A stretch of DNA of 64,000 bases from a virus: the IMG/VR virus record IMGVR_UViG_3300012642_000011, positions 96,001 through 160,000 of that record. One strand, 5' to 3'. The notes beneath the pieces were generated by a model. It was not told the DNA's origin and did no database searches. It worked only from the letters and a program-made list of their open reading frames with translations. Every line of letters starts with the position of its first letter. Position 1 is the stretch's first letter. The position numbers and the translations under genes are program-made. This document shows positions 34,827 to 60,541 of the stretch, one piece after another.

Positions 34827-35648
34827 ATGGAAAAGTATCACATCACAGACAAGGGTGAAGTCAAGACCTGCACTGCACATGTGCGTAAATGCCCCATCAA
34901 TGATGCCCCTATGCACTTTTCAAACAAAGAGGATGCCTACGAACACATTGCCAACACAGTCAATAATAGTGCAATCTTGACAAAAAAGAATGAAAGCATG
35001 ATCTCTCAGAGAGACAAGAAGAAGAAAATTCAGGCTTTTGTTGAACTAAACAAAATATTGGAGAAGTCATCTCGGGGTTTTGGATACCACGTCAGCAATG
35101 ACGGTCTGGAAGAAATCAACCCTGATAAAAGGACAGAGAACACTGACTTCACCTACCTTGGAGGAGGAATGGTCAGAGATGCTTACTATCACCAGAAGAC
35201 CAATCTTGTCTATAAGGTAAATCGTTTCTTCACAGATGAAGAATCCAGAAAATTTTCGCTTCACGAGAAGAGGGCCTATGACTCCTTGAATCATGAAGAA
35301 CTATGGAAGAAGAAAGTCCGCTATGCTGACACTGACTTCATTGAAACCCCTGATGGACGAATTTTCGTTACACAGGAAGCTATTTTGGCTGAAAATCTAG
35401 GATACCATCCCACCAAGTTCAGCAGCGCCCATGATGAGATGATGTCTCATTCATCAGGAAAAATAGGTGAGATAATGGGATTCTTGAAGGACAATGGGAT
35501 CACTGATCTTCAGATGGGGAATGTGGTCTATGACAAGAATAAAGATGAGATCATTCTCATTGACTGCCTCCCTATTGAAGATGACCTGTTGAAAAAAGTT
35601 CGAAAAGAGAATGACAAGGCGTGGGAGGATTCAGGAATGGATTATTGA
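34827..35648 (+). CDS. protein with the shared N-terminal His/Cys motif (family member; C-terminal domain unknown)
   Basis: N-terminus MEKYHITDKGEVKTCTAHVRKCPINDAPMHFSNKEDAYEHI matches the family consensus. Confidence 0.55.
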   Translation: MEKYHITDKGEVKTCTAHVRKCPINDAPMHFSNKEDAYEHIANTVNNSAILTKKNESMISQRDKKKKIQAFVELNKILEKSSRGFGYHVSNDGLEEINPDKRTENTDFTYLGGGMVRDAYYHQKTNLVYKVNRFFTDEESRKFSLHEKRAYDSLNHEELWKKKVRYADTDFIETPDGRIFVTQEAILAENLGYHPTKFSSAHDEMMSHSSGKIGEIMGFLKDNGITDLQMGNVVYDKNKDEIILIDCLPIEDDLLKKVRKENDKAWEDSGMDY

Positions 35649-35751
35649 TTTGATGTCACAGAACAACTCAATGATCCACCTTCAAGCAAGCGACTTGACA
35701 ACAGTGCAAGCATGGTGTAAAATAGAAGATGTCAGAAACGATATCAATAAT

Positions 35752-35836
35752 GGATGGTTGTCCGAGCGGCCTATGGAGCTGGTCTTGAAAACCAGTAGGT
35801 GTAACAGCCACGAGGGTTCAAATCCCTCACCATCCG
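35752..35836 (+). tRNA. tRNA-Ser (TGA), class II, copy 1 (CCA encoded)
   Basis: Acceptor ggatggt/accatcc, discriminator G, then cca. Anticodon stem ctggt/accag, loop ctTGAaa. Long variable arm. Confidence 0.8.
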
Positions 35837-35910
35837 CCAGAGTTGACATAGTAATCACAATATGCTATACTAACTCTACAAACAGCGACAGTTGTGAGAT
35901 TGACGCTTAT

Positions 35911-35983
35911 GCTCCCATCGTCTAGTGGCTTAGGACATCGCCCTTTCACGGCGACGACACGGGTTCGAATCCCGTTGGGAGTA
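35911..35983 (+). tRNA. tRNA-Glu (TTC)
   Basis: Glu-type scaffold gctccca tc gtct ag. Anticodon stem tcgcc/ggcga, loop ctTTCac. T-arm acggg-ttcgaat-cccgt. G1·U72. Confidence 0.8.
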
Positions 35984-36004
35984 CGATAAAAATCATCGAC
36001 ATTC

Positions 36005-36048
36005 CAACAAGACCCCTTTTTGAATTAATTCAAAAAGGGGTCTTGTTG
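36005..36048 (+). terminator. bidirectional terminator (perfect 44-nt palindrome)
   Basis: caacaagacccctttttgaatt / aattcaaaaaggggtcttgttg. Confidence 0.65.
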
Positions 36049-36176
36049 TAGAATAAAAGTGATAGGTGATAATGGACAAGATGAAAATAGTGACTCTACA
36101 ACAGTCCCACCCATTATCATGACCCCATTGACACCTCTTACTCTCGTTGTAATCAGATTGACTTTACGCTTCAGAC

Positions 36177-36933: not shown

Positions 36934-39648
36934 GTGTCAAGGAACCTCAAAGCCAAGAAATTTCCTCCTAAAATTAGTCGTTCTTTTCAATCGGCTCTGA
37001 AGTATGCACAAGCAAACAAAGATGTTGAGAAAGCAGTAGAGAAAGCAACCTGCAACCTTCTTGAAGAGGGATTGACAGTATATGCGGGCAACGTTGCTCA
37101 TACTCACTACCCTCACAAGACAGACGGTGTTGTCACTGTCTCCAATGGACTCTTTGGCGACATGAGTATTCTGGTGGAAGCAAAGAGGGATTCAGGAGAC
37201 CTTTCTCAGCCCAAGTCCCGCGCTGTTGTAATCGCCCAGTCTGTCTTCTACCTCAAGAGGTTCAAGGATGCAGGAGACCTGATACCGTCTGTTCTGGTCT
37301 TTGCTGACATGGATCAGGTCTTTGCTCTCCCCACCTCTTTGGTCATCAACTACCTTGACGGAGTATGGGGTGAGGTCAGTGAGGGATGGAATTGGTCTCT
37401 GTCCCCTTCTGGGGTCTCCAAGCACTCTGTGAGTCTCGTGGAGGCACTATCTACAGACTCCAACCTCAGACCCTTCGTGCGTCCCGTTGATGACTCCTTT
37501 GACGCTGAGGCTTTCATCTCCTCTGTCTATGATATGGCAAGCACAGGAGAACCCATCAAGATCCCTGTGACAGCATTGACATTGGAGAGGCTGTTCTTGA
37601 AGTTCAATCAAAACGTCTTCGGTGGCATCCTCAACGCCAAGACGCAAGGGGACACAGTATCCAATCAAGATCAGATCTCCATCTTCATCGCTTCCCTGAA
37701 GGGTTCTGACTCCACTTACCTTCACCCTAAGCAGCCCAATGTGCTGGTGCATGGAAAGAAGAGTGTGCGCTTGAATTCAGATGCTTATGAAGCCTTCTGG
37801 AATCACTATGACTCAGCATCTTATACTCTGGATGAACTCAAGGCTATCACTGAAATCGCTGACACTCTCATCAACGATGTTGACAGAAGATTCCATGGTG
37901 ACTTTTGGACTCCTGTGATCTGGGTGAATAAGGCTCATGAGATGATCACTGAATCTCTTGGTGAGGATTGGAAGGATAATTATACTGTCTGGGACCCGGC
38001 TTGTGGCTCCAAGAACTTGACTCGTGACTACTATTTCAACAACCTCTACCTCTCCACTTTGCATGAAGAAGAGTTGGAGATCTCCTCTGACTACAACCCT
38101 GAAGCCTCAGGAGAGCATACCTTCGCCTATGATTTTCTCAATGATGATGTTGATGTCATGCATGGTGAGAATGCTTACACAAGAGATCAAATGGAGGCCA
38201 TGAGTGATGAAGAATTGAGCAGGACATTCAAGATGCCTGTGTCTTTGATTCGTGATTTGTTGGCAAAGAAGCCTTTTGTGTTCATTGGCAATCCGCCGTA
38301 TGGATCGGATGGAAATATGCAATCAGTTAACGAGTCAAAAAAATCAATTGCTGATACAAAGATTAGATCACTCATGCTGAAAAATAAAAAGGGTGGTCAT
38401 GCTGCGAGGGAACTTTATACTCAATTTATCTATAGGGTTAAAATAATATCTGATAAATTCAATTACAGCCATGAAGATGAGTTCCACTTCTTCTTCTTCA
38501 ATAAGGGCTTCTTGACATCTCCTAACTTTAGCGAATTTGTTTTTGACTTAACAGCAAAGTTTCACTTTAATAGAGGTTTTATGATCAATGCTGGTGAATT
38601 TAATGGTACATCTTCCTCATGGGGAATTATTTTCTCTCATTGGTCACTATTGGGTTTGAAAAATCAAAATGTTTTTAATTTTAATGTTCTTGAAAATAAA
38701 AAAGGAATTATAAAAGATATAGGGCATTGGTCAGGAGAAATTACTGGCAAATATAATACTATATCTTCATGGCTTTCCGAGGTGGAAATTCCCAAAAATA
38801 AAACTTATGAAAATGTACCTTTGACTAAAAATGGACTAGAAAAGAATACTTCAGCAAATCTTTATTCTAAAATGTCAAATGATTGGATTGGGTATATTGC
38901 TAATCATGCAAACAACGTCCATAAATCAGATAAGTATGTAGGAATGTATTCTATGGGTGCAGGGTCTCAAGTGGGATGGTGTATCACCCCTAACAACCTT
39001 ACCCGCGCCGCAATGACCTTCTCCATCCGCCGTTCAGTCCAAGAAGATATTGCTGAACACAAACTCCTCTGGGTGCGTGATAAAGACATCTTCACTGCCC
39101 CTTCTGAGGAACTTTCTGAAGACAAAGTATTCACTGCTGACTGCATGGTGTATTCACTCTTTGATCGCCAATCCAATCAGACTTCATTGCGCAACTTTGA
39201 ATACAATGGCAATAGTTATCGTATCATCAATGAATTCTTTCCGTTCTCAAGAGACTTCATTAAAGACTTGGCTGTTCAGCACAGGAATCTGAAGGTTCAG
39301 CAAGATGTCAGTGTAGAGACCAAAGAGCGCATTGTCTACAATTGGCTGCAGGAGAACGAAGAATACTTGAGTGATGAAGCAAGGGATCTCTTGAGAATCG
39401 TGAAGAACATCTATGAAGTCTCCTTTGCTTCCCGTGCTGACTATGATCACATGCACCCACGCTACCAAGTGCAATCATGGGATGCAGGATGGATGCAAAT
39501 CAACAGAATGGTCTTTGGCAACGATAGAATCAGTGATGAGTATCTTCACCTCAAGCCTGATTTCATTGCTGCCAGAAAAGTCTTGGGCAAAAAGATTGCT
39601 CAAGCCGCCTATGATGACGGCATCATAGCGGGGATTGAAAAAACTTAG
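36934..39648 (+). CDS. Type IIG restriction-modification enzyme (N-terminal PD-(D/E)XK nuclease fused to gamma-class N6-adenine methyltransferase)
   Basis: GTG start. N-terminal GDMSILVEAKRD nuclease motif. Methyltransferase motif I VWDPACGSKNL and motif IV FIGNPPYGSD. C-terminal roughly 400 aa is a putative target-recognition domain. 904 aa. Confidence 0.7.
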   Translation: MSRNLKAKKFPPKISRSFQSALKYAQANKDVEKAVEKATCNLLEEGLTVYAGNVAHTHYPHKTDGVVTVSNGLFGDMSILVEAKRDSGDLSQPKSRAVVIAQSVFYLKRFKDAGDLIPSVLVFADMDQVFALPTSLVINYLDGVWGEVSEGWNWSLSPSGVSKHSVSLVEALSTDSNLRPFVRPVDDSFDAEAFISSVYDMASTGEPIKIPVTALTLERLFLKFNQNVFGGILNAKTQGDTVSNQDQISIFIASLKGSDSTYLHPKQPNVLVHGKKSVRLNSDAYEAFWNHYDSASYTLDELKAITEIADTLINDVDRRFHGDFWTPVIWVNKAHEMITESLGEDWKDNYTVWDPACGSKNLTRDYYFNNLYLSTLHEEELEISSDYNPEASGEHTFAYDFLNDDVDVMHGENAYTRDQMEAMSDEELSRTFKMPVSLIRDLLAKKPFVFIGNPPYGSDGNMQSVNESKKSIADTKIRSLMLKNKKGGHAARELYTQFIYRVKIISDKFNYSHEDEFHFFFFNKGFLTSPNFSEFVFDLTAKFHFNRGFMINAGEFNGTSSSWGIIFSHWSLLGLKNQNVFNFNVLENKKGIIKDIGHWSGEITGKYNTISSWLSEVEIPKNKTYENVPLTKNGLEKNTSANLYSKMSNDWIGYIANHANNVHKSDKYVGMYSMGAGSQVGWCITPNNLTRAAMTFSIRRSVQEDIAEHKLLWVRDKDIFTAPSEELSEDKVFTADCMVYSLFDRQSNQTSLRNFEYNGNSYRIINEFFPFSRDFIKDLAVQHRNLKVQQDVSVETKERIVYNWLQENEEYLSDEARDLLRIVKNIYEVSFASRADYDHMHPRYQVQSWDAGWMQINRMVFGNDRISDEYLHLKPDFIAARKVLGKKIAQAAYDDGIIAGIEKT

Positions 39649-39658
39649 GAGATTGAAA

Positions 39659-41836: not shown

Positions 41837-41908
41837 GCTTCTGTAGGTTAACGGTAAACCAGATGACTCTAAATCATTGACATGCGGGTTCGACTCCCGT
41901 CAGAAGCA
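41837..41908 (+). tRNA. tRNA with anticodon CTA (amber/UAG suppressor candidate)
   Basis: Acceptor gcttctg/cagaagc (perfect). D-arm ggtt-aacggta-aacc. Anticodon stem gatga/tcatt, loop ctCTAaa (U33, A37). T-arm gcggg-ttcgact-cccgt. Discriminator A. Confidence 0.65.
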
Positions 41909-42010
41909 CGAAGATAAAGTAAATCTCTTAAGTTGAGTTTACTCTTTCTTCTGTCTACTTGACAACACAAGAAGTATAGTGTACAATAGAAGACAACAAC
42001 AACAAAATAT

Positions 42011-44347: not shown

Positions 44348-45838
44348 ATGAATTTCTTAGAAGCACATCCAGAAGTTTCATCATCATGGTCTGAAAATAA
44401 TGCATTCTCTCCTGACTCAATCTCCAAAGCATCAAGGAAAAAAGTCATCATCATCTGTGATAAACATGGTGACTATGAAATCAGGGCAGATTCTTACCAC
44501 AATGGCAACAGATGCAAACAATGTGCAGCAGAAGTCAAAGCACAGAGCAAGATCACGAAAGCAATTGCTCAACATGGAAGCGGTCTAGAAAAGTACCCCT
44601 CGCTAAAAAAGTATGCAGTAAGAGATTTCCACGCTAAAGATGATCACAAGATACCATTCCGCTGTCCCGATTGCGCACACGAATGGACGCTATCGCCCTA
44701 TAGTCAAATGATTATCAACGGCTGCCCACAATGTGACCCACAGGCAAAGATAAGAATGAAGAATCACATTCCTACTATGAAGTCTTTGACACATGGAAAC
44801 ATAGCAGACCAGAAACCAGAGATAGTTGCACAATGGTCGCCAAAAAATGATCTAACAACAGAACAAGTCAGTTGCGGTTCTGGTTATCGCGCTACATGGA
44901 TATGTGAGATCAATCCGAACCATGAATGGGAATCCTTTGTTTACCAGAGAGCAGGAAAGAAGGAAACAGGATGCCCACAATGCAATATATCTGGAATAGA
45001 ATCAGAAATTGGTCAACTCCTATCCGATCACCATGTTGACTTCATTCGTTCCAATCGAAAAATTATTGCACCCTATGAACTGGACATATACATTCCAGAG
45101 AAAAATGTAGCCATAGAAGCCAATGGTGTCTATTGGCATACAGAAAAACAAGGAAAAGATAGGAACTATCACTACAACAAGTGGAAACAATGCCATGATC
45201 AAGGAATCCAACTGATCACCATCTGGGAAGATGACTGGATGATGAAAAAAGAACTCATTAAAAAGATGATTCTTCACAAGATTGGACTATCCCATCAGAA
45301 AAGTATCTACGCACGTACATGTTCAGTCAAAGATGTTCCCACTATAGAATCCAATAGATTCTTGAATACTTACCATATTCAAGGAGAAGCAAGAGGAAGT
45401 GTGAAGATTGGACTTCACCATGAAGGAGAACTGGTTGCTATCTCCGTATGGAAGAAACTTAAAGAAGATGAATGGGAATTATCTCGCTATGCAACAAGCA
45501 TGAACGTTGTTGGTGGAGCAAGCAAAGTCATCAAAGCATTCATTCGTCAACACTCGCCAAGCAAGATTGTCACATTCGCTGACCATGAAGTATCTGATGG
45601 TGGACTATATGAAAAATTAGGGTTCACTGCCGACAAGGAGATCAAGCCTGATTACAAGTATGTTATAGACAACAAAAGAATACACAAGTTTAATTATAGA
45701 TTGAAGAGGTTCAAGAGCGATCCCACACTCATCTACGAAGAAGGATTGAGTGAATCACAGTTGGCTCAACTGAATAACATTGATAGAGCATGGGATTGCG
45801 GTAAAACACGATATATTCTGCAGTTACCCTTGATTTGA
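44348..45838 (+). CDS. homing-endonuclease-like protein (paralog 2 of 4)
   Basis: Zinc-ribbon repeats (C..C ... C..C) plus ELDIYIPEKNVAIEANGVYWH...GIQLITIWEDDW and the shared C-terminal domain (IVTFADHEVSDGGLYEKLGF...HKFNYRLKRFK...WDCGKTRY). Confidence 0.7.
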   Translation: MNFLEAHPEVSSSWSENNAFSPDSISKASRKKVIIICDKHGDYEIRADSYHNGNRCKQCAAEVKAQSKITKAIAQHGSGLEKYPSLKKYAVRDFHAKDDHKIPFRCPDCAHEWTLSPYSQMIINGCPQCDPQAKIRMKNHIPTMKSLTHGNIADQKPEIVAQWSPKNDLTTEQVSCGSGYRATWICEINPNHEWESFVYQRAGKKETGCPQCNISGIESEIGQLLSDHHVDFIRSNRKIIAPYELDIYIPEKNVAIEANGVYWHTEKQGKDRNYHYNKWKQCHDQGIQLITIWEDDWMMKKELIKKMILHKIGLSHQKSIYARTCSVKDVPTIESNRFLNTYHIQGEARGSVKIGLHHEGELVAISVWKKLKEDEWELSRYATSMNVVGGASKVIKAFIRQHSPSKIVTFADHEVSDGGLYEKLGFTADKEIKPDYKYVIDNKRIHKFNYRLKRFKSDPTLIYEEGLSESQLAQLNNIDRAWDCGKTRYILQLPLI

Positions 45839-47791: not shown

Positions 47792-47830
47792 AAATAGACC
47801 AGTAAATTACTGGTCTATTTTTGTTTTTGA
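47792..47830 (+). terminator. strong terminator
   Basis: aaatagaccagtaaattactggtctattt followed by ttgtttttg. Confidence 0.7.
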
Positions 47831-47916
47831 TGGTCGTTTTTATCTTACTTCTCACCATACTTGTATACTTCTCCCAAATGGTGTGCTCTAAGCATAGATC
47901 TTGTTATCATATATGT

Positions 47917-49665
47917 ATGAAGCCCCAACTGTATGAGTATTTTTTAGATCATCCCGAAATGAAAGCAATGTGGTCACGTCGCAATAGTGACGAACTGTTG
48001 TCTAAAACGGCTGGAAGCAATGTGAAGGCACTATGGTCTTGCTCTACTTGTGGGCAAGAATCATTAATCCCTATTTACCGCAAGGTCAACAATCCTCTTA
48101 CATGTTCTACATGCAATGGGAGCAAGGTGGTTCAAGGGGTGAATGATTTGGAAACAATGTATCCCGAAATAGCGTCTGAATGGTCGTCGAGGAATGAGAA
48201 GAAACCTTCAGAAGTAAAATATAGTTCTGCAATCACTGCTGAATGGGATTGTAAAAATGGGCACTCTTTTACTATGTATCTTCCTGAAAGGACGAGATCG
48301 ACCAGGAAATCTCGGGGGTGCCCTGAGTGTAGAAGACAAGAAATCCAGGAAGACAAAGAGAATAACCCTAATAAGCGCTCTATTGCATCGGGAAATGGAT
48401 CAGCGGAGATGCAGCAGATGTTTGTGGAATCATTAGGAAAGATCAAATTTCCAGGAGCGAGGTCAGGCACACTTTGCTTATGGAGATGCTCGAAGGGGCA
48501 TGAATGGAGGCAAGTTCCTAAGAGATTTAATGGATGTGAAATCTGCGATCCGCCCCAGTATATTCTACCGCAGTCCAGGAACAAAAACATTTTAAAGGTA
48601 TCCAATTCGATCCTCCACACTCATCCTCATGCTATAGAATTATGGAATGATTCAAGAAGTCCAGAATCAGTAACTAAAGGATCATCCTATCGCGCTCAAT
48701 GGAAGTGTGCTAAAAACCATCAATGGGAACAATCTGTCTACACAGTGCTCCGGTCCCTCGACAAAGGTCACAAAGCATGCCCTCATTGCTCTTCCATGAT
48801 TTCTGCTGCTGAAAAGAAAATCTCTGAGATTGTAAAGGAGGCAATGAATCCATTGGGTTTAACTGTCCTCACTTCCCATCGTAAATTGATTCCTCCCTAT
48901 GAAGTAGACATTTATGTTCCTGAGAAGAAGATTGCTATTGAATACAATGGTCTCTACTGGCATAGTGATGCTAATCGAAAGGGTAAAGACAGGAATTATC
49001 ACTACAACAAGTGGAAGAAATGCAAAGATCAAGGTGTCCAATTGATCACCGTGTGGGAGGATGATTGGCGTGACCATGAGGACATTGTGACATCAATGTT
49101 GTTGACCAAGTTGGGTGTTTCTGATGCTCAGAAAGTCAATGCTCGTGATTGTGTGATCGTAGAATCTTCTTATACCGATTCTTCTGCATTTCTTGATGCT
49201 CACCATATTCAAGGTTCAGCAAGAGGGAGTTTCTATCTTTCCTTATTGCATGATGGTGTCATGGTGGCAACTTCGGTGTGGGTGAAGAGGGGGTCAGACC
49301 TTGTTCTTGAGCGCTACGCAACCTCTGTGAGCGTTCGTGGTGGCATGGGTAAACTGTTGAAGGCTGGGTGCATAGAAGGCCGTCAGAGGGGCGCACAGCG
49401 CGTTGTGACTTTTGCTGATCATGGTGTTTCTGATGGTGGATTGTATGAGCGCCTTGGTTTCGTTGCTGACAAGGTGTTGAAGCCTGATTATGCGTATGTT
49501 GTAGATGGTGATAGGAAGCATAAGTTCAATTACAGGTTGAAGAGGTTCAAGAATGATCCAGTATTGAGATATGTGGACGGTTTATCTGAATCCCAGTTGG
49601 CTGAGTTGAATGAGATTCCTCGTGTATGGGATTGTGGGAAGACGCGGTATGTGATGGGTCTTTGA
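47917..49665 (+). CDS. homing-endonuclease-like protein (paralog 3 of 4; the 47821 start is unlikely because it overlaps the terminator)
   Basis: Zinc-ribbon repeats, then KLIPPYEVDIYVPEKKIAIEYNGLYWHSD...GVQLITVWEDDW, then the shared C-terminal domain. Confidence 0.65.
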   Translation: MKPQLYEYFLDHPEMKAMWSRRNSDELLSKTAGSNVKALWSCSTCGQESLIPIYRKVNNPLTCSTCNGSKVVQGVNDLETMYPEIASEWSSRNEKKPSEVKYSSAITAEWDCKNGHSFTMYLPERTRSTRKSRGCPECRRQEIQEDKENNPNKRSIASGNGSAEMQQMFVESLGKIKFPGARSGTLCLWRCSKGHEWRQVPKRFNGCEICDPPQYILPQSRNKNILKVSNSILHTHPHAIELWNDSRSPESVTKGSSYRAQWKCAKNHQWEQSVYTVLRSLDKGHKACPHCSSMISAAEKKISEIVKEAMNPLGLTVLTSHRKLIPPYEVDIYVPEKKIAIEYNGLYWHSDANRKGKDRNYHYNKWKKCKDQGVQLITVWEDDWRDHEDIVTSMLLTKLGVSDAQKVNARDCVIVESSYTDSSAFLDAHHIQGSARGSFYLSLLHDGVMVATSVWVKRGSDLVLERYATSVSVRGGMGKLLKAGCIEGRQRGAQRVVTFADHGVSDGGLYERLGFVADKVLKPDYAYVVDGDRKHKFNYRLKRFKNDPVLRYVDGLSESQLAELNEIPRVWDCGKTRYVMGL

Positions 49666-49734
49666 TTGATTTTAATGATACCTCCTTCTATAGAGAATTC
49701 TTCATAATATTCTTGTTAAGAAGGAGGCATCATA

Positions 49735-50793
49735 ATGTCGGCTAAGTATGCTTTAAACACGGCAACAGGTGAAATCACGCTTTGTCGTAGCACTGGTCAA
49801 CGTCCTTGCCCACATGCCTCTGCAGATCATTACTCTTCGAAAGATGAAGCCCAGAATGCTTTTGAATCACTCATGAAAAAACAAGAAACGTTGTCATTGC
49901 AGAGAAAAAGCACAACATCACCATCTTATGACAATCTTCCATGGTTATCTCATGTAGGCGATCATTTTGATCAGATTGATGCTCACTATGAGATCACGGA
50001 TAGGTTTGAACACAATGGTCAAGGAATGGTTCTTCTACACAGTGACAAATCACCCTATAGCAATAGAGACATCTCGGCGTTCACAGAAGATGGCGCTGAA
50101 GTTAGCACCAGTGAAGTCAGGGATGAGGAAACAGGTGAGAGAATAGGGTTCTTGAAGACAGTCCAGTACTCTGATGCTGCTTTAGAAGCATCCTTTGGGA
50201 AAGAGGATGATTACATGACATATTTAAAATATGGTGAACGGTATCATTCTCTGTTCTATGATTTTGACGATGATCCAAAAGAGAGCATAGAGAACATGAA
50301 AAAATTGTGGAAGTCTGTGGCATCCTCTTCTGTCGTTAGATCCCATCCCCAGTACAGTGTCACATCTATGGGAATGAAACATAGACATGCAAATGGTAGA
50401 AGTCTTAATCCGCCTGAAAGCATGGAAGAGATAGAATCTGACCTTAAAGAGTCATCTAAATTCTTCCAAGAGGAATATATGAAACGATTTGATCCCTCCA
50501 CGAGATCATATGCTTTCATTGAATACTCCGAAATCAATGAAAGCCATAGAGGAACAGGGCTTGGCAAAAAGATGTACCTATCATCTGCGCGTGCTTTAGG
50601 AGCAAGGGGCCGTATTCTTGCGTCTTCAACCTTACAAACAGACAATGCTCAAGGTCTATGGAAATCATTGCTGAAAGACGACAATGACCACATTAGAATC
50701 CACTCCTATGACTATAAGGGAGAAAAGAAAAACAATTACTTGCTTGATTATAGAGATAAGAGTATTGATCAAGTCAAGGATGGTGAAGAATAA
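49735..50793 (+). CDS. shared N-terminal motif domain fused to a GNAT-like acetyltransferase domain (tandem paralog 1)
   Basis: N-terminus MSAKYALNTATGEITLCRSTGQRPCPHASADHYSSKDEAQNAFE. C-terminal GNAT motif A HRGTGLGKKMY. SD aaggagg upstream. Confidence 0.6.
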   Translation: MSAKYALNTATGEITLCRSTGQRPCPHASADHYSSKDEAQNAFESLMKKQETLSLQRKSTTSPSYDNLPWLSHVGDHFDQIDAHYEITDRFEHNGQGMVLLHSDKSPYSNRDISAFTEDGAEVSTSEVRDEETGERIGFLKTVQYSDAALEASFGKEDDYMTYLKYGERYHSLFYDFDDDPKESIENMKKLWKSVASSSVVRSHPQYSVTSMGMKHRHANGRSLNPPESMEEIESDLKESSKFFQEEYMKRFDPSTRSYAFIEYSEINESHRGTGLGKKMYLSSARALGARGRILASSTLQTDNAQGLWKSLLKDDNDHIRIHSYDYKGEKKNNYLLDYRDKSIDQVKDGEE

Positions 50794-51821
50794 TGCCTCA
50801 ATACGCTTTGAACACGCAAACAGGTGAGATCACGCTTTGTCGTAGCACTGGTCAGCGTCCTTGTCCACATGCTGACAATGATCACTATGCATCCAAAGAT
50901 GATGCTCAGAAATCTTTTGAGAGCATGAATGAGAACAATCAGATTGCCACATTGTCCAAGGCAAAAAAGGCACCAGAGGAATCATCCCTGCCCTTTCCTT
51001 CATGGGCAGAAGAACACAAGAAAGCAGTGGAAGCAGTAGGCGGAGAGTACAGTATTGTCAATAGGATCATACATCAAGGGAAGCCTATGGTCATCACACA
51101 TTCTACATTGTCTTCTCGTGATCACGATAAATTCGTCCAAGAGAAAAGCGGAATGAACATCTCAGAGACGATTGTTCATGATGAGGAAACAGGAGAAAAG
51201 ATTGGTTTCATCAATGTATGCTTTGTCAATGATGAGTCAGTGAGAAGATGCTTTGGTGATGAAGATGACTACATGACTCCTATCAGGTATGCCAAAAGGT
51301 ACATATCTTCAATTCAAGGCGCGAAGATGAAGGTCAATGAAGACCCTCGTGGCAATGATAAAAAGATGAGGGAATTGTGGCTTGATGTGATGAATGTTGA
51401 TTCATCTCATATAAGGGATTTCAAAGTTCCCTCTGGTGCCAAGATGAGCGGATGGTCATGGACAGCAGATGATGTTCCTGAAGACCCTAAGGCAGTAGAA
51501 AAGGATATCGAGTCACTATCTGGTCAATTCAAGGAACAACTCAGAGAGTTCAAGAGATCTTTTAGCGTTCCTTTTGTTGAATTTGCTGAAATAGAAGATG
51601 AGTACAAGGGAACAGGTTTAGGCAAGAAGATGTATGTGGAAGCAGCCAAGGCAATGGGAAAGCGTGGTATGGTAATCAGATCATCAGCAATTCAATCTGA
51701 AGATGCAGAAAGGCTATGGTCATCATTACGTAAAGATGAGAATATTGTTGTCAAAGAAGGTAATCTAGCCGTCAAGGGAGACACATACGATTACCTCTAT
51801 CTTGACTACAGGGATCAATGA
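50793..51821 (+). CDS. shared N-terminal motif domain fused to a GNAT-like acetyltransferase domain (tandem paralog 2)
   Basis: N-terminus MPQYALNTQTGEITLCRSTGQRPCPHADNDHYASKDDAQKSFE. C-terminal YKGTGLGKKMY. TAATG overlap with paralog 1. Confidence 0.6.
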   Translation: MPQYALNTQTGEITLCRSTGQRPCPHADNDHYASKDDAQKSFESMNENNQIATLSKAKKAPEESSLPFPSWAEEHKKAVEAVGGEYSIVNRIIHQGKPMVITHSTLSSRDHDKFVQEKSGMNISETIVHDEETGEKIGFINVCFVNDESVRRCFGDEDDYMTPIRYAKRYISSIQGAKMKVNEDPRGNDKKMRELWLDVMNVDSSHIRDFKVPSGAKMSGWSWTADDVPEDPKAVEKDIESLSGQFKEQLREFKRSFSVPFVEFAEIEDEYKGTGLGKKMYVEAAKAMGKRGMVIRSSAIQSEDAERLWSSLRKDENIVVKEGNLAVKGDTYDYLYLDYRDQ

Positions 51822-52737: not shown

Positions 52738-54675
52738 ATGAAACTCTGTGATAAGTATCCCCAGCTTAAAAATAAGTATTCACAACTTAATAATACTATT
52801 TTTGAGGAAAAAGAGTATCGATACGATGAGTATCTTTTTTGGGATTGTCCTCAAGGGCATCATATTTATAAGCCTGCTAGAGAAATCAATAGATATCAAA
52901 ATTGCAATTCCTGTGAAAACATCAAAAAGACTGGGATTGAGTTCTTTGAAAGCTTGGAATACCTCTATCCCTCTATCGTAGAAAAATATAGTGTCAAAAA
53001 TATTCTTTCTGCAAACAGTGTTCGACCAGACTCACTTTTTAATGCAATCTGGGAAGATCGAGATGAGAAAATAAAAATATACGATAGGGTTCTGGAAGAA
53101 ATATCTTCAGGAAATGTGAAAAGAAATCATGTAACGAAGAGAAACGTAAAAAATAGAAAAAAGAAAGACAATGTTTCTGCGGAAAGTATATCCAAGCCGC
53201 AAGAAAAAGAGGATTCACCTCTTTTAAAAGATGCCTACCCAGACCTTTATGAAATGCGATTAAACGATTGTGAAGATCTTAATATTTGGTCTAATAAAAA
53301 ACTTTTGTGGAAGTGCGACAAAGGGCATGAGTTCACTTCAAGTATACGAAACCTCATTAAAAGATCAACTAAGTGCAATGTCTGTAGTGGAGTTGCCTTG
53401 CAAAAGGGAGTCAATGATATTTCGACCCTGGCTCCTGACCTTGCCTCATGCATTGTATCTCCTGACCCTTCAGAAATTACATTAGCATATAATAAACCTA
53501 TCACTTTTAAATGTTTCACTTGCATGCATCAGTGGGTTTCAAATTTGGATAAAAGAAAAGACAGATCTTTAAGATGTCCTGGATGCAGCGGAAAAACTGT
53601 AATTCATGGATTCAATGACATTGAAACTATTATGCCGCACATCAAAAATTCATGGGCAAAGAATAATAAATACATGCCTTCTGAAATGACAACAAAAAGC
53701 GAAAAAGAAGTATACCTTTATTGTTCGAATGGAATATCGCATGATCTGGTTAAGACTTATGCATATGTAATTTCTCGAACACCTAATAGGAGAACTTATT
53801 TATGTAATCACTGTTCTGGATCTGCTGGTGAAATCGATATGGCAAATTTCATTGCTTCGCTCGGATTTACCACAATCAGAAAAGACAGGAAAATTATAAG
53901 GCCAAAAGAACTGGATGTATATCTTCCTGATCTCAAGGTGGCTTTTGAATACAATGGTCTCTATTGGCATTCAGATAAGGCAGGCAAATCCGACACCTAC
54001 CATTACGACAAGTGGAAGCGCTGTGCTGACAAGGGTATCCAGTTGATCTCTATCTGGGAGGATGATTGGAACTATCGTGAGGACATTGTCAAGAGGATGA
54101 TTGCTCACAAGTTGGGCGTCAGCAATGATCGCAAAGTCTACGCTCGGCAAACCGATGTCGTCATTGTAGACAAGGATGATGCCCGAGCGTTCTGCAATGC
54201 CCACCACATTCAAGGCTATGTATCTGGTAGCGTCTACTATGGTCTCAAAGATCGCAGGACGGATTCTTTGGTGGCTGTGAGCGTCTGGAAGCGTTCAGGT
54301 GACCAATTGCGCCTTGAGAGGTATTGCACGTCTGAGAACGTGATTGGTGGCATGGGAAAGATGTTGAAAGCGGGAGTCCAGTATGCCAAGGACAATGGGT
54401 TGAGCAAGATCGTCACTTTCTCTGATCATGATGTCTCTGATGGTGGACTGTATCGAAGACTTGGATTCATTCCTGACAAGGAGTTGAAGCCTGATTACAA
54501 GTATATCGTCGGCGGTACCAGGGTTCATAAATTCAACTATCGCATCAAGAGGTTCAGGGATGATCCGAACTTGAAGTATGCTGATGGTCTCACTGAATCC
54601 GAGTTGGCGCAGTTGAACAGTCTTCCTCGTGTTTACGATGCCGGCAAGACGCGTTGGGCGATCAATGTATCCTAA
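52738..54675 (+). CDS. homing-endonuclease-like protein (paralog 4 of 4)
   Basis: Zinc-ribbon repeats, then KELDVYLPDLKVAFEYNGLYWHSD...GIQLISIWEDDW, then the shared C-terminal domain. Confidence 0.7.
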   Translation: MKLCDKYPQLKNKYSQLNNTIFEEKEYRYDEYLFWDCPQGHHIYKPAREINRYQNCNSCENIKKTGIEFFESLEYLYPSIVEKYSVKNILSANSVRPDSLFNAIWEDRDEKIKIYDRVLEEISSGNVKRNHVTKRNVKNRKKKDNVSAESISKPQEKEDSPLLKDAYPDLYEMRLNDCEDLNIWSNKKLLWKCDKGHEFTSSIRNLIKRSTKCNVCSGVALQKGVNDISTLAPDLASCIVSPDPSEITLAYNKPITFKCFTCMHQWVSNLDKRKDRSLRCPGCSGKTVIHGFNDIETIMPHIKNSWAKNNKYMPSEMTTKSEKEVYLYCSNGISHDLVKTYAYVISRTPNRRTYLCNHCSGSAGEIDMANFIASLGFTTIRKDRKIIRPKELDVYLPDLKVAFEYNGLYWHSDKAGKSDTYHYDKWKRCADKGIQLISIWEDDWNYREDIVKRMIAHKLGVSNDRKVYARQTDVVIVDKDDARAFCNAHHIQGYVSGSVYYGLKDRRTDSLVAVSVWKRSGDQLRLERYCTSENVIGGMGKMLKAGVQYAKDNGLSKIVTFSDHDVSDGGLYRRLGFIPDKELKPDYKYIVGGTRVHKFNYRIKRFRDDPNLKYADGLTESELAQLNSLPRVYDAGKTRWAINVS

Positions 54676-55310: not shown

Positions 55311-55497
55311 GCGATCAAGGTCTGACACATAATCTTACACAAGAGAACACACTTGTCGCCTGAGAAAAACTCAAATGTTAATACTCATGATGAAATGATT
55401 GAATATCCCTAAAAACGATAGTGATCAATTCAATCCTCTATAAACATGTTAGAAAAGTGTTCATACATGTTTTCAAACAATACTATAGAGGTACATC

Positions 55498-57360
55498 ATG
55501 AGTAAGATGCATATTTCAGAAGATGGCAACGCAAGGCCATGTCATGCTTCAACCCCAGAGAAATGTACGTTAAAACCAAACCCAAATGACATCTACGGTA
55601 TCACAGGCAGGCACTTCGATTCTCAAGAAGAAGTAGAGAAGTTCTATGAGAGTATCCATAATGGTGGACTTGCATCCTTGAATAAGGAAAAAGAAAAGAA
55701 AGATCATATTCACCAATCAGACTCTCATGGAACATCTTCTCATCAACAAGAAACGTCAGACAACAGTGCTACAAGTCAGGACGACGATTCAGAAGAAAAT
55801 CATGCTTTCAATCCTACATATACCATTAACCCAGATGATTTAGACAAATTCAAGAAGAAGATTGACAAGGCCAACCAAAGGCTCAAGGACAATGGTATCG
55901 ATGACGAATTCACATATGATGTTGAGTATGAGGAAAGAAAGAAGAAAATTGGTCCAAACCTCTATGCTTATGAGCAATTTGCCAAAGTTACACTGAATAA
56001 ACCTGTCATCAAGCAAGAAGGATACACCTTTGAAGCGTCCGTGACCCAAGAAGAGGGCGGTATGCTGGTCAGGGGAACAAGAGAATCAGACCTTGAGGGC
56101 TGGCGTCCTTCTGACATGAGTTGTGAACACTGTGGTCAGAACAGGGACAGAAAGAAGGTCTATATCCTCAAAGATGAGGAAGGTAAAAAACATCAGGTAG
56201 GTTCCTCTTGTGTATCTGATTACTTGGGCGTCAAGCCTGAAGGATTGTGGGCACTTGATGTAGACCACGAAACATTTGCCCCCAGTGACAAAACACCTAG
56301 GTTCAAACCTATGTATGAACCTAAAACTCTTGCTGCTGTAGCAATGGCATTGAGTGATAGTGGAGAGAATTATATTGGTTCACAATCTCAAGGGGTTTCC
56401 ACTGCTTCTGAAGTCGATGCTTACTTCAATCCTCCTTCTCCTCAAGGAAGAGGCTACGAGGCTAGACGAAAAGCCCAAGAAGAAAACGAGAGACGAGCAC
56501 AAAAGGTAGAAAAATACTTGGCTGATCCTGAGAACACTAAGAAAATAGATGATGCCATGAATGCTGTAAAAAACATGAATAGGGGTGACTATGCTGAAAA
56601 CATGAAGACCATTTTTAATTCTTCTAAAGTCAGTGGAAAGTCCTTCAACTATGCCGTTTCTGCAGCAGCTGTTTACAATAGGGCGCAAAGAGATGCCCAA
56701 AGGACGCAACAGTGGGCAGAGGAGAAGAAATCAAGAGAAGAGAAGAGGGCACAAGAAGTAAAACAGTACGCCACTGGCTATTTAGGTAATGAAGGTGATT
56801 CTGTCAAAGGAACTTCAGCTACTTTTGTAGGCATGAGGAATACAAGCATGACAGATATGCGTGGTAACCCTGTGAAAGCAATCACGATGAAGAGCGCAGA
56901 TAATAAACAGGTGGTCTGGTTCACTGCTACTCCTGATAATGATTTTAAAGAAGGCGATGAGATTGAGATCACAGCGGGCAGTGTCAAGAGGCAGGGGCAT
57001 TACAACGGCATTGACCAAACTATCATCACCAGAGCAAAGATTACTGATAAGCATACATTGAACACATCTAATAATGTTCGTGAAGCAATGAAGAAGTCTA
57101 GGTTGACGAAGAACTTCAAAAATGGTCGTGGACAGAATGACAAGGATTACGTCATCACTCCTGCAAGTACTGAAGATGGATATGCAATGAGTTTCTCAAA
57201 GAACAAGGAGACTGGCGAATTCTCTATTCTCAAGTACCACATTCATGATAAGTTTGATAATGGATTAGTATTCAAAGGCAGCGAATCAGATGGCTATGAT
57301 TTCATGAAAAATGCTATCAAAAACAACGAATCAGTGTCTAACATGAAATCTATTGATTGA
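55498..57360 (+). CDS. shared N-terminal motif domain protein (620 aa; C-terminal region unknown, includes a CxxC...C zinc-binding-like segment)
   Basis: N-terminus MSKMHISEDGNARPCHASTPEKC...HFDSQEEVEKFYE. Internal MSCEHCGQNRDRKK...SSCVSDY. Confidence 0.55.
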   Translation: MSKMHISEDGNARPCHASTPEKCTLKPNPNDIYGITGRHFDSQEEVEKFYESIHNGGLASLNKEKEKKDHIHQSDSHGTSSHQQETSDNSATSQDDDSEENHAFNPTYTINPDDLDKFKKKIDKANQRLKDNGIDDEFTYDVEYEERKKKIGPNLYAYEQFAKVTLNKPVIKQEGYTFEASVTQEEGGMLVRGTRESDLEGWRPSDMSCEHCGQNRDRKKVYILKDEEGKKHQVGSSCVSDYLGVKPEGLWALDVDHETFAPSDKTPRFKPMYEPKTLAAVAMALSDSGENYIGSQSQGVSTASEVDAYFNPPSPQGRGYEARRKAQEENERRAQKVEKYLADPENTKKIDDAMNAVKNMNRGDYAENMKTIFNSSKVSGKSFNYAVSAAAVYNRAQRDAQRTQQWAEEKKSREEKRAQEVKQYATGYLGNEGDSVKGTSATFVGMRNTSMTDMRGNPVKAITMKSADNKQVVWFTATPDNDFKEGDEIEITAGSVKRQGHYNGIDQTIITRAKITDKHTLNTSNNVREAMKKSRLTKNFKNGRGQNDKDYVITPASTEDGYAMSFSKNKETGEFSILKYHIHDKFDNGLVFKGSESDGYDFMKNAIKNNESVSNMKSID

Positions 57361-57485: not shown

Positions 57486-58787
57486 TTACTCGTCATCGAT
57501 ATCAAAATGTAAATCCAGATCTTTCAAGATCTCTTCATCTGTCTTCTTTTTTAGCGGATTTTCACCTGTCTGTTTCTCGACAAACTCAGCAAAGCCAGGA
57601 ATCATTTTGGCTATGCGGGCAGTATAATCTACTCTTGAGGCGTTTCTTGCAAGAGTTTGATCGTCCTTCAGCCTTCCCTCCTGTGCTTCCTTCATGAAAA
57701 ACGCCAAGTTTTTGGCGGCACGAGTATAATCCTTGTGCTCACTTTCGTCATAGAAACTTTCCTTGTGATCTCCTGAATATGGTAATCCCTCACCATCCCA
57801 GTTCTGCTTTCCGTTGATGACGATACTGTCTTTATTCCTGTGCTCATAGACGACAAAAGTTCTCGTGGAAGCATCAGGAGCCATGACCGTATAAGTAAGA
57901 CCGTTCTCTCTGCCGTTCTCCATGAAAGAGACGAATACATTGCCAATTCCTTGTTTGTCCATCTCTTCCTTTAGTTCCTTATGAGGAAAGCCGAAAGCAA
58001 GATATGCCTGTTGATTATCCTTTGTTTCTGCGACGATGCGATCTCGTGGCTGTAGATAAAAGATGCTTTCATAATGTTCTCCATTATCCATTCCTTCTGG
58101 GTGCATCTGATAATCATCATTCTCACCATTGACAATTCTCCCAATGGATTCCTGTACATATTTTTTCTCTTCGAGTTCTTTAACCTTCTTCTCCCCAAAG
58201 CCATAAGAGAAGAACTTTTCTACCGCTGCATCTGTTGAATGATCGAATCCAACCAATTTTTCATTCTTTTCGTATTCTGAAGAAAATCGTTGTGGAGTAT
58301 GGGATTTTCCCCATTGGGACATGATTTCCGTGCCAGCAATGTCTTTAATCTCTCGACTTCTTACACCAGGATCAGATGAACGCCAACTGTGTTGCCGAAT
58401 AGGAGGCTTCTGTTCAATTTGATTGTATTCCTTAATTGCTGTATCAAGGTCGCCTTTTCTTGCTGCTAGTACTGACTTTTCTGCGCGGAGAAGAGCAGCA
58501 TTGTCAAAAGAATCCCATTTCGTTGGATCTTTTTCAATATACTTCTTTTTAAAGTAGTGCATATCTGGGTTATCGCTTCCTTGTGGACGATCCAGAATCC
58601 TATTGAGAACCCTTTCTCTTGCGTTTTCGCTTAGTGCCTCCACCTCTTGCTTGAATTCAAAGTGTTCGCGTGCTTCCTCTTTTGAATCAAAATGATCTTT
58701 TTCCATGTCACCCATTCTACACTTACGCTTTGCAGGGCATTTTACTGCTGTTCCTTTGGCTGAAATATGGTATCTTTCTTTTTCCAT
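57486..58787 (-). CDS. shared N-terminal motif domain protein (433 aa; minus strand)
   Basis: N-terminus MEKERYHISAKGTAVKCPAKRKCRMGDMEKDHFDSKEEAREHFEF. Confidence 0.55.
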   Translation of the reverse strand: MEKERYHISAKGTAVKCPAKRKCRMGDMEKDHFDSKEEAREHFEFKQEVEALSENARERVLNRILDRPQGSDNPDMHYFKKKYIEKDPTKWDSFDNAALLRAEKSVLAARKGDLDTAIKEYNQIEQKPPIRQHSWRSSDPGVRSREIKDIAGTEIMSQWGKSHTPQRFSSEYEKNEKLVGFDHSTDAAVEKFFSYGFGEKKVKELEEKKYVQESIGRIVNGENDDYQMHPEGMDNGEHYESIFYLQPRDRIVAETKDNQQAYLAFGFPHKELKEEMDKQGIGNVFVSFMENGRENGLTYTVMAPDASTRTFVVYEHRNKDSIVINGKQNWDGEGLPYSGDHKESFYDESEHKDYTRAAKNLAFFMKEAQEGRLKDDQTLARNASRVDYTARIAKMIPGFAEFVEKQTGENPLKKKTDEEILKDLDLHFDIDDE

Positions 58788-58914
58788 CTTGCTCTCCTAT
58801 GTGAGTTCATATAGATACATTTCTCTCTATAAACATAATGGTAAGATATACTTGACATCCTCATCATCGACGTGCTATGATGGTCATATCACGTCAACAC
58901 GAATGATGAAACAA

Positions 58915-58987
58915 GCCCGCATAGTTCAGTTGGTAGAACACTTTCTTGGTAAGAAAGAGGTCGTCGGTTCAATCCCGACTGCGGGAC
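58915..58987 (+). tRNA. tRNA-Thr (GGT) (G1·A72 mismatch)
   Basis: Acceptor gcccgca/tgcggga. D-arm gttc/gaac. Anticodon stem ctttc/gaaag, loop ttGGTaa. T-arm gtcgg-ttcaatc-ccgac. Consensus promoter TTGACA-18-TATGAT about 50 nt upstream. Confidence 0.7.
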
Positions 58988-59020
58988 CAAAAGATATCTG
59001 ATCAACTTTGAGAGGTTATA

Positions 59021-59383
59021 ATGCGCGATTCACAGGAACCGTTGATGTCAGATGGGTGGAAGACCGCTTCACGAAAGAAAAAGAACACAAAGAAATGGTG
59101 CAAGGGCAAGGTCGGCGTAGAACATAAGCCAGTAGTAAAGATCAACGAAAAGATCCTTCTTGGCCGTCGCTCAAACTGCGAGTTCTTTGTAGACAACGAT
59201 TACGTGCAGAGCTTCTTAGATTGTGATCACCACGTTGTCTGTGAGGTGTGCAACAAGGAGTTGCAATGGCATCCTGATGTCTGCCCGATTACACAGAAGC
59301 CAATTTCAAATGAAATCACCGATCACAAGGAAAGACTTCTAACTCAAGGGATATCTAAAGTTCTCCACTATAGAGAAGTTTAA
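59021..59383 (+). CDS. hypothetical Cys/His-rich (zinc-finger-like) protein
   Basis: SD agagg upstream. C..C and CDHH...C..C patterns. 120 aa. Confidence 0.45.
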   Translation: MRDSQEPLMSDGWKTASRKKKNTKKWCKGKVGVEHKPVVKINEKILLGRRSNCEFFVDNDYVQSFLDCDHHVVCEVCNKELQWHPDVCPITQKPISNEITDHKERLLTQGISKVLHYREV

Positions 59384-59527
59384 GTACTAAACAATAAGAT
59401 CATCAGTTCAAATCTAGTCACCCTGCTATCGTTCTCATAAGATACAAGTGTCATCTCTACATTGATTAACCTATTACGATGGTAATTTTTAGAGAAGAGT
59501 GATGAGAAAACAGCAGGTGATAAGAAC

Positions 59528-60541
59528 ATGAAATACCATATTGATGATAATGGGACACCAAAAGTATGTGATGCTTCTTATGATAACTGTCCTTATGGGG
59601 CTGATGCTCCACACTTTGACAATAAGGCAGATGCTCACCAATACTATGAGAAGATCAATACGTCAGAGGAGATTCCTTCTGGACTGTCAAAGAAAAAGTC
59701 AAAGTCTCCTATGATGGTCTCTGTTTACAGAGCAGGCAGAATGAGTCCAGCCAGTGCTGAAGAGAGTTTTGAAGATCTAGAAAGGGTCAAGAAACTCTTT
59801 GATGATCGTGCCCCAGAAGGGAGGCAGAAAAGATCAGGAGCACTTTTCGCCAGTCCTGATTTAAAATCACATTCCAGATGGGTCGGCAGTTCTGGCCCTG
59901 CATCATTGACCAGTCATGAGTTTAAAGTAGATGCGAATAATGTATATATTTACAATGTCAATCTTTACGAGAATGCGTCTTATACGGATGAATCGGAAAG
60001 CATTGAAACTGTAAATAAAATGATTGATGATTATTGGAATTCTGGAATGACTCTTGCCCAATGGCATCAGATGTCCGAAGAGGAAAAGGGTGATTATGGC
60101 TCATGGGAGATTCTTCTTCCTTCAGATCGGGAATACAAAACTAAGAAAGTTCCTAATAAAACAGTAATCACTGAATCTGATCCTTCCCTATCAAATCAAC
60201 TCAATTGGTCTTTAGAGAGAAAACGAGCCAGAAATGGACTTATATGGAGAAAATCTCACCTATCAGAAGATGATTATCAGCAGGTAAAACAATCTCTTTC
60301 ATCAGAGAATATTGATGAAGAATTCATTGAAGACATGGAGAGCATTCATAGATCAAATGCTTACAGGGTTGAGGATTTGTATTCCGCAAGAATGGAAATC
60401 TACAACAAGTACAAGAACATCAGAAAGAAAAAAGATGACATAATACCCAATTACAGTCAGATCAATGACGGACAGAAGGAGGAGTTCTTCAATAAGGTTG
60501 AGGTCTATTTCAAGAAAACTGATGATTTTTCACATACATGA
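59528..60541 (+). CDS. shared N-terminal motif domain protein (337 aa)
   Basis: N-terminus MKYHIDDNGTPKVCDASYDNCPYGADAPHFDNKADAHQYYEKI. Confidence 0.55.
   Translation: MKYHIDDNGTPKVCDASYDNCPYGADAPHFDNKADAHQYYEKINTSEEIPSGLSKKKSKSPMMVSVYRAGRMSPASAEESFEDLERVKKLFDDRAPEGRQKRSGALFASPDLKSHSRWVGSSGPASLTSHEFKVDANNVYIYNVNLYENASYTDESESIETVNKMIDDYWNSGMTLAQWHQMSEEEKGDYGSWEILLPSDREYKTKKVPNKTVITESDPSLSNQLNWSLERKRARNGLIWRKSHLSEDDYQQVKQSLSSENIDEEFIEDMESIHRSNAYRVEDLYSARMEIYNKYKNIRKKKDDIIPNYSQINDGQKEEFFNKVEVYFKKTDDFSHT

Follow-up and report, generated by a model that had tools for sequence, protein, structure and literature searches.

A conserved N-terminal Cys/His module joined to different C-terminal domains in an uncultivated 332-kb phage: a candidate common adaptor

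Why would a phage place the same small N-terminal domain in front of proteins whose remaining parts differ? The question is raised by a 64,000-nucleotide stretch of viral DNA (positions 96,001 to 160,000 of IMG/VR virus record IMGVR_UViG_3300012642_000011; the whole stretch is called the window here), in which seven open reading frames (ORFs) start with one homologous module, as aligned over their first 45 to 53 residues. The window lies within a 332,269-bp metagenomic contig (ena:ERZ27289831:k141_11150) that is phage-like in gene content, and other samples also hold assembled parts of this 332-kb genome. An earlier note on this DNA had listed seven such ORFs, and all were present where it had placed them. 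The modular architecture that it had proposed is borne out by the analysis described here, which finds a common N-terminal Cys/His domain followed by a low-complexity linker and then by unrelated C-terminal domains. We put at about 0.5 the probability that the module is a zinc-binding common adaptor through which different enzymes reach one partner.

Homology among the N-termini was assessed by leave-one-out searches, in which a hidden Markov model (HMM) built from six N-termini was run against the window's complete set of 659 six-frame segments. In every search, the next-best match was the member left out, with E values of 1e-10 to 1e-18 in six of the seven cases. The remaining one (55498) has a 9-amino-acid (aa) insertion between the second Cys and the His and reached an E value of 1.5e-3; with a 147-sequence profile, it reached 2.6e-12. 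A profile made from outside sequences alone recovered all seven, at E values of 1e-12 to 1e-19. The shared module of about 45 aa, previously noticed by inspection, withstood this HMM check. The members are as follows.

11525..12271, plus strand: member 1, 248 aa; module at ~11525-11656, Ser-rich linker, ADP-ribosyltransferase (ART) domain at residues 63-230; leave-one-out E 1.8e-10
34827..35648, plus strand: member 2, 273 aa; module at ~34827-34961, Lys-rich helical linker, kinase-like domain at residues ~105-250; leave-one-out E 1.3e-12
49735..50793, plus strand: member 3, 352 aa; module at ~49735-49872 (Ala at the first His position, CPH present), probable GNAT; leave-one-out E 2.9e-15
50793..51821, plus strand: member 4, 342 aa; module at ~50793-50927, probable GNAT; leave-one-out E 7.6e-18
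55498..57360, plus strand: member 5, 620 aa; module with the 9-aa insertion at ~55498-55656, acidic Ser-rich linker, large C-terminal domain; leave-one-out E 1.5e-3
57486..58787, minus strand: member 6, 433 aa; module at ~58650-58787; the sole minus-strand member; leave-one-out E 2.8e-10
59528..60541, plus strand: member 7, 337 aa; module at ~59528-59656; leave-one-out E 3.5e-12

The mechanical ORF start for member 1 is 11492; the start at 11525 puts the module at residue 1 and is preceded by a ribosome-binding site, GGGGAGGG. No eighth copy was detected within the window by the six-frame search of 659 segments, the best unrelated segment having an E value above 1. The 332-kb contig does hold an eighth member of 354 aa, with the N-terminus MKKYHINLKGNVMPCEADVKPCKFGSADHFESKKAAQQSFE, at ~4.5 to 5.5 kb past the end of the window (L051 15524-16588). 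The count of seven is thus complete for the window but not for the genome.

The distribution of the module was examined with a profile of the seven N-termini searched against 1.84 billion representative proteins, clustered at 50% identity. This search matched 4001 clusters at an E value of ≤1e-3 and 93 at ≤1e-10, and the best 150 matches were inspected. The family consensus is MxKYHIxxxGxPxxCRAxxxxCPxGxxxxHFxSKEEAxxxxE. Among the seven, G10, C15, C22, and H30 (numbering of 34827) do not vary. Ala takes the place of the first His in 49735 and 50793, both of which gain a His right after "CP"; of the two His and two Cys residues that had been called invariant, both Cys and the second His hold and the first His does not. 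Across the best 150, C15, C22, and H30 are invariant and M1, H5, G10, A17, P23, and A37 are at least 90% conserved. The spacing H-x9-C-x6-C-x7-H is kept while other positions vary, a pattern expected of a structural metal site. A His directly after CP occurs in 3/3 sequences that lack H5, versus 6/147 overall, so that loss of H5 with gain of CPH looks like a ligand swap; this may have been a single event, since the three H5-less sequences are related to each other.

AlphaFold2 prediction from 42 sequences gave a confident small fold for the module (predicted local distance difference test [pLDDT] score, 82), with strands at residues 4-6 and 12-14 forming a beta-hairpin, a helix at 34-49, and a loop that carries C15, C22-P23, and H30. 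The mean net charge is +2.4 in the N-terminal half and −2.7 in the C-terminal half, which comprises the acidic helix. Judging from conservation, H5, C15, C22, and H30 most likely hold one zinc ion. It is speculation that the conserved "[A/S]-[F/Y]-E" at the module's end is an S/A/G-x-E maturation cleavage site; this very short motif fits only 4/7 members.

The module starts within the first 7 residues in ~145 of the best 150 matches, in proteins of 49 to 649 aa. The C-termini of these 150 match 26 Pfam families, and the majority are without any match. The Pfam families found behind the module include GNAT, ART, HEAT, MORN, LRV, 2H phosphoesterase, GmrSD_C, pentapeptide repeats, YqaJ, nucleotidyltransferase, and LysM, to which the fetched loci add fusions to a T4 Rnl1-type RNA ligase and to Zeta toxin. 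From these assignments, the C-terminal repertoire appears to be in large part of a host-modifying or conflict type.

The C-terminal domains of the window proteins were then considered one by one. Member 1 carries PF03496 (ADPrib_exo_Tox) at residues 63-230, with an E value of 7.4e-13 and 48.7 bits against a cut-off of 23.4, and it has a PHROG Alt-like ART match (E 8.8e-9). Its assignment as an Alt/VIP2-type ADP-ribosyltransferase, made from sequence matches, is solid and agrees with the earlier call. Member 2 contains the motifs LGGG..AY, VYK, E139, DLQMGN, and IDC, which are invariant in homologues of 28 to 33% identity; L111-G112-x-G114, K130, E139, D227-x4-N232, and D246, which do not vary among homologues of 29 to 33% identity, correspond to a protein-kinase-like signature. 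The AlphaFold2 model of member 2 is poor (pLDDT 55); nonetheless, 50/50 of its best Foldseek matches in the PDB are protein kinases, headed by OspG (E 3e-4, probability 0.99) and followed by NleH and RIO, with TM-scores of just 0.18 to 0.33. The C-terminus of member 2 is predicted to be a minimal protein-kinase-like domain, so that one of the four C-termini that had been left unassigned now has a predicted function.

Like OspG/NleH and T7 gp0.7, member 2 would have a small kinase fold (~170 aa), and it shares with them the Gly-rich loop, the Lys, the catalytic loop of the D..N type, and the Asp for metal binding. Its identity to these minimal effector kinases is 14 to 18%, its model is of low confidence, and its PHROG match to the T7 gp0.7-type kinase is faint (E 0.05).

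Members 3 and 4 are tandem paralogues with overlapping stop and start codons. Their matches to Acetyltransf_1 (member 3; E 0.032, 15.0 bits) and Acetyltransf_CG (member 4; E 0.078, 13.6 bits) fall under the threshold, and both contain a GNAT motif A of the type R/Q-x-x-G-x-G/A (HRGTGLGKK in member 3 and YKGTGLG in member 4). A homologue, P0015 (blastp E 7e-18 and 1e-22 to members 3 and 4), has a Pfam GNAT score of 21.5 against a cut-off of 20.7. The C-termini of members 3 and 4 are probable GNAT acetyltransferases on this basis; the earlier GNAT assignment is below the Pfam threshold for the two proteins themselves (E 0.03 and 0.08) and is supported through the homologue. The two C-termini align with 35% identity (E 9e-53), so that the C-terminal parts, unrelated in general as had been stated, are related in this pair. 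Their modules (49735-49830 versus 50793-50885) have 91% nucleotide identity across 68 nucleotides (nt), and identical residues have identical codons at 18/24 positions in the module versus 45/102 in the C-terminal part. The higher codon identity in the module hints that gene conversion may have occurred.

Member 5 matches phrog_2319 (function unassigned; E 2.5e-49) over residues 106-516, corresponding to profile positions 4-397 of 399. Because this alignment begins at the profile start, the phrog_2319 family is without the module. Member 6 matches phrog_11149 (E 6e-9) at residues 285-371. The C-terminal domain of member 7 had no Pfam match and is homologous to those of P0075, P0029, P0140, and P0042 (E 4e-62 to 9e-13), all of which are module carriers. 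At least four of the seven C-terminal heads are thus predicted to be protein-modifying enzymes.

The family genes also share an upstream sequence. The motif [TA][AT]TAGAG[AG] (WWTAGAGR) occurs within 70 nt upstream of 7/7 family genes in the window, at −14/−15 or at −40 to −47, and it also precedes the eighth member.

11478..11485, plus strand: motif ATTAGAGA, 47 nt ahead of the member 1 start
34812..34819, plus strand: motif TTTAGAGA, 15 nt ahead of the member 2 start
49689..49696, plus strand: motif TATAGAGA, 46 nt ahead of the member 3 start
50749..50756, plus strand: motif TATAGAGA, 44 nt ahead of the member 4 start, within the end of member 3
55484..55491, plus strand: motif TATAGAGG, 14 nt ahead of the member 5 start; may double as a ribosome-binding site
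58824..58831, minus strand: motif TATAGAGA, 44 nt ahead of the member 6 start
59488..59495, plus strand: motif TTTAGAGA, 40 nt ahead of the member 7 start
L051 15481-15488: motif TTTAGAGA, at −43 of the eighth member, directly downstream of a terminator-like hairpin

The 5-mer TAGAG was found in the 70-nt upstream region of 3/35 other genes. A 6-mer shared as widely was seen in 0/5000 random sets of seven segments and in 0/5000 sets drawn from the upstream regions of other genes. TWTAGAGR is not enriched across the whole window (13 sites observed versus 9.7 expected); 6/13 of these sites are upstream of family genes, and the ATTAGAGA of the seventh gene falls outside that pattern. The signal lies in placement upstream of family genes and not in abundance. 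The eighth member, which was not used in deriving the motif and yet carries it, provides independent confirmation. These results suggest that WWTAGAGR is a candidate promoter-like element of one transcription class; at −14/−15, it may overlap the ribosome-binding site. AT-rich jumbo-phage relatives (L004 4425-4504, L005 786-865, and L009 6111-6190) instead have TTTGTCAAC, an AT-rich palindrome, and GATATAAC conserved ahead of family genes. Since relatives of different base composition carry other upstream sequences, WWTAGAGR is specific to the lineage of the window's phage.

Which genomes carry the module was examined at the DNA level as well. A degenerate pattern for the MAKYHI variant (MAKYHI..G..C.A..CP), for which well below 1 chance match is expected, was found among 185,579 species genomes in 3 short contigs of metagenome-assembled genomes only, one of which (L002) has four family genes in 3.5 kb. 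Three DNA patterns, which sample three N-terminal variants, retrieved 25 IMG/VR contigs, of which 17 are at least 100 kb and 8 at least 200 kb (largest, 325 kb); several are multi-copy. A 20.9-kb contig related to the window phage (L020) has six family genes in 12 kb. In BFVD, the uncultivated "Siphoviridae sp. ctHip2" has at least 11 module proteins (30 to 51% identity), 10 labeled uncharacterized and 1 labeled Zeta toxin. Nothing real was found by tblastn with two canonical module sequences against 50,697 GenBank phage records, even at an E value of ≤10, or with one module sequence against 72,556 plasmids. Word-indexed protein searches with module alignments gave 0 and then 4 matches, the method being too insensitive for a domain this short. 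On this evidence, the module would belong to large uncultivated phages, being rare in cellular genomes and undetected in the cultivated phages searched, for which the absence is based on the two-query tblastn and on PHROGs.

The earlier note did not recognize the N-terminal domain as a described family, and no counterpart has emerged. No model in Pfam, NCBIfam, PHROGs, or PADLOC covers the module in the seven proteins or in 150 relatives, where the matches were at chance level only (DUF7552, E 0.2; NUMOD4, E 0.12; Lustrin, E 0.06; DUF2188, E 0.17). A PDB sequence-profile search with the module returned chance-level matches to eukaryotic uL5 only (E 0.6), a PDB fold search yielded no counterpart, and a description of the module was not found in the full-text literature searched.

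Several known families were considered and rejected. DUF2188 (PF09954) is, like the module, a small beta-hairpin plus helix with an "H/F-x-T/S-x-x-E-A" helix start (Pfam E 0.17; BFVD probability 0.23); unlike the module, it is without Cys/His ligands and ends in DPxPPKG. With an alignment built from phage records, hhalign gave a probability of 5.6% over 17 columns only. The zinc ribbon of Bacillus phage G is also a small metal-binding domain present in many copies within one jumbo phage. It is a lineage-specific expansion of ~35 copies, in small, single-domain proteins with CPxC...C...C knuckles and a C-terminal KENDRYL motif (PMC7824862). Its motif differs from that of the module, and the best match of the module HMM in the first 50 kb of phage G, a region that encodes several of the ribbon proteins, had an E value of 1.2; the two families are not homologous. 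The module does not have the two CxxC (or CPxCG) knuckles of a zinc ribbon, treble-clef, or rubredoxin-like finger. It is also not a T4-type capsid-targeting sequence, which is an N-terminal peptide of ~10 aa that the prohead protease cuts off at an L/I-x-E site; the module is a predicted fold of ~45 aa and no short leader. No MuF (Phage_Mu_F) match was found in any of the seven, the phrog_595 match covering only the ART region (50-235). Nor are the window proteins polyvalent proteins, which join at least two effector domains and often include zincin peptidases, as each has one recognizable C-terminal domain or none, and no peptidase.

In overall design, the family nonetheless resembles known systems. 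MuF-fused effectors and T4 Alt/internal proteins have a constant N-terminal part and interchangeable C-terminal enzymes or toxins, including Alt/VIP2-type ARTs, and are deployed against the host early in infection (PMC9503650, PMC5512222). In contrast to these, the module is a predicted folded Cys/His domain that also stands alone, and its genes are outside a head-gene cluster. Polyvalent proteins have an overlapping set of effectors (ART, Zeta-like kinases, 2H, nucleotidyltransferases, and GNAT), both groups presumably act early in host conflict, and 49735 has a weak LPD11 match (E 0.007). However, polyvalent proteins combine 2 to 15 domains in one giant protein, and a comparable Cys/His module is not described there (PMC5512222); the family has one effector domain per polypeptide behind a common tag, in many separate genes.

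The family genes are dispersed across an island of tRNA genes and mobile elements. The window has 38 tRNA genes at 29892-58988, and 11525 adjoins a ribonucleotide reductase-like ORF of 1526 aa. Other phage-like features are genes for NucS, a CshA-type surface protein, helicases, an AAA ATPase, and proteins with PASTA and G5 domains, together with ORFs that resemble homing endonucleases and contain DUF4379 fingers. A close cultivated relative was not found; a 12-kb stretch matched a tRNA only, and the best match of the PIF1-like helicase had 35% identity.

Some features of this region were recorded on their own account. A tRNA with the anticodon CTA (an amber reader, labeled "Pyl" by ARAGORN) is at 41837-41909, and an odd tRNA call with a two-base anticodon is at 34578-34649. 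Three large paralogous plus-strand ORFs with repeated DUF4379 treble-clef fingers (44348-45838, 47821-49665, and 52738-54675) alternate with tRNA and family genes and have the appearance of homing-endonuclease-type mobile genes. Two of the three weakly match an MTES_1575-type restriction-endonuclease-like domain, and the C-terminal region is conserved among them. A fourth ORF, at 4674-6407, bears a DUF723 finger. By eye, the ribonucleotide reductase-like ORF (6718-11298, plus strand) seems to be split by a pair of intein-like insertions, with Cys following the splice junctions and with ends that read HNC/GNC. Directly after 11525, at 12379-14125, a small minus-strand ORF and a 433-aa ORF with C-terminal CxxC pairs resemble an IS200/IS605-type TnpA-TnpB pair, again as judged by eye. 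A resolvase and TnpB pair (Pfam) lies just beyond the window's end, with a similar pair in the related contig L020; besides 12379-14125, these observations cover L011 18699-20875.

A 904-aa ORF (36934-39648, plus strand), 1.3 kb downstream of 34827, has no Pfam match and contains GNPPYG, the motif IV of N6-adenine methyltransferases. In two other contigs (L017 1361-2350 and L018 264-1274), a stand-alone module gene adjoins an Eco57I-type methyltransferase gene; the proximity of module and methyltransferase genes may be a coincidence. Between two family genes, a 120-aa ORF (59021-59383, plus strand) matches the C3HC4 RING finger PF13920 (E 2.6e-6; 27.6 bits versus a cut-off of 27), and a RING-type finger is unusual for a phage. 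Downstream of member 7, a 641-aa protein (60642-62567, plus strand) has a hydrophobic, signal-like segment at its N-terminus and contains a CshA-repeat/Big_9 domain (E 3e-17) and six tandem repeats; in its C-terminus, "LIKTG" precedes a hydrophobic stretch and then a basic tail. This phage-encoded product resembles a Gram-positive wall-anchored adhesin, which may hint at the host.

The established homology, modularity, N-terminal position, distribution, and upstream motif raise the question of what the module does. We propose that an uncultivated 332-kb jumbo phage carries the family as a set of paralogous accessory genes, in whose products an N-terminal domain of ~45 residues is joined through a flexible low-complexity linker to an unrelated C-terminal domain. 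The module would be a common adaptor that docks different enzymes onto one shared partner, and the phage would thereby send a changeable host-modifying and counter-defense set to the same place at the same time. The activities so deployed would be, for the window, an ADP-ribosyltransferase, a minimal protein kinase, and two probable acetyltransferases and, for the relatives, a Zeta-toxin kinase, RNA ligase, 2H phosphoesterase, nucleases, and repeat proteins. The upstream WWTAGAGR would let the members be transcribed as one class. The candidate partner is either the virion interior, which would allow co-injection, or a hub of the host, RNA polymerase and the ribosome being examples.

Several observations weigh against this proposal. 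The C-terminal domains have proteins, RNA, and DNA among their targets, so that a single host target is not obvious, and in the part of the window scanned, no recognizable structural gene is near the family genes, which have tRNAs and mobile elements around them. Tandem or C-terminal module copies occur in P0007, P0070, P0051, and P0080, and stand-alone modules of 58 and 65 aa are genuine genes internal to their contigs. Such copies imply that the module is more than a leader tag and may act by itself, for example, as an inhibitor. The inspection, moreover, covered the best 150 of the 4001 matches. The stand-alone modules would fit a binding domain with its own role better than a pure cargo tag.

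A special form of the adaptor model, possible but doubtful in our view, holds that the module is a virion address tag. It would bind a scaffold, inner-body, or portal component, so that the enzymes would be loaded into the large capsid and enter the host together with the injected DNA, much as with MuF-fused toxins or with the capsid-targeting sequence of T4 Alt and the T4 internal proteins. A strictly N-terminal module position would suit such a tag, as would carriers that are mostly very large phages and a repertoire that overlaps that of head-packaged or polyvalent effectors (ART, 2H, Zeta, nucleotidyltransferase, and GNAT; known cases in PMC9503650 and PMC5512222). Weak, sub-threshold matches to crAss cargo protein 2 (E 0.003) and to LPD11 (E 0.007) point in the same direction. 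However, neither a MuF domain nor a short protease-cleaved peptide was found in the seven, no recognizable head gene is near the family genes in the part of the window scanned, and there are stand-alone modules without cargo. Equally tentative is the wider reading in which a large uncultivated clade of jumbo phages has the module as its universal address tag, directing proteins to the capsid interior, a phage-built compartment, or a host hub.

The module could instead be a nucleic-acid-binding zinc finger that holds the enzymes on DNA or RNA, for which the host nucleoid, the phage genome, tRNA, and the ribosome come into question, the stand-alone copies being small DNA- or RNA-binding regulators. 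The Cys/His metal-site pattern with its basic N-half (+2.4), the tandem repeats in some proteins, the fusions to RNA ligase, 2H phosphoesterase, and YqaJ and GmrSD nucleases, and the location of genes within the 38-tRNA island are all consistent with this role. We consider it unlikely, as the module is about neutral overall because its conserved helix is acidic (−2.7), many partners modify proteins, and the module resembles no known finger. A portable 5' cassette, in which promoter-like motif, ribosome-binding site, and module move together and capture new 3' coding segments by recombination, would make the N-terminal position a reflection of gene origin, with the module serving mainly for stability, dimerization, or regulation (for example, auto-inhibition) and not for targeting. 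This explanation, which we think very unlikely, could account for the upstream motif common to all eight members, for C-terminal domains that exist without the module (the phrog_2319 profile begins at the C-domain), and for the tandem arrays in other contigs, and the codon counts of the tandem pair (18/24 in the module versus 45/102 in the C-terminus) hint at gene conversion. Against it, the modules outside the tandem pair have no detectable similarity at the DNA level, nor do the stretches from motif to start codon show an apparent one; the two motif distances (−14/−15 and −40 to −47) argue for selection on function rather than recent copying, and protein-level conservation over thousands of clusters implies selection for a function of the module itself.

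The adaptor reading combines a known design, a constant handle with swappable heads, with a handle that itself appears undescribed. The module marks ~4000 protein clusters in metagenomes and is present in 8 to 11 or more copies per genome in large phages, where most of the attached C-terminal domains are uncharacterized. Its presence can therefore flag accessory and host-takeover proteins, through guilt by association, in phages that have not been grown. WWTAGAGR likewise provides a candidate promoter in a phage lineage lacking known transcription signals. If the module is an address tag, its 45-residue signature would list the full deployed effector repertoire, comprising thousands of mostly unknown domains, and the module would be usable as a portable tag. 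The binding partner of the module would reveal how early host manipulation is organized in these phages and might give a compact targeting tag.

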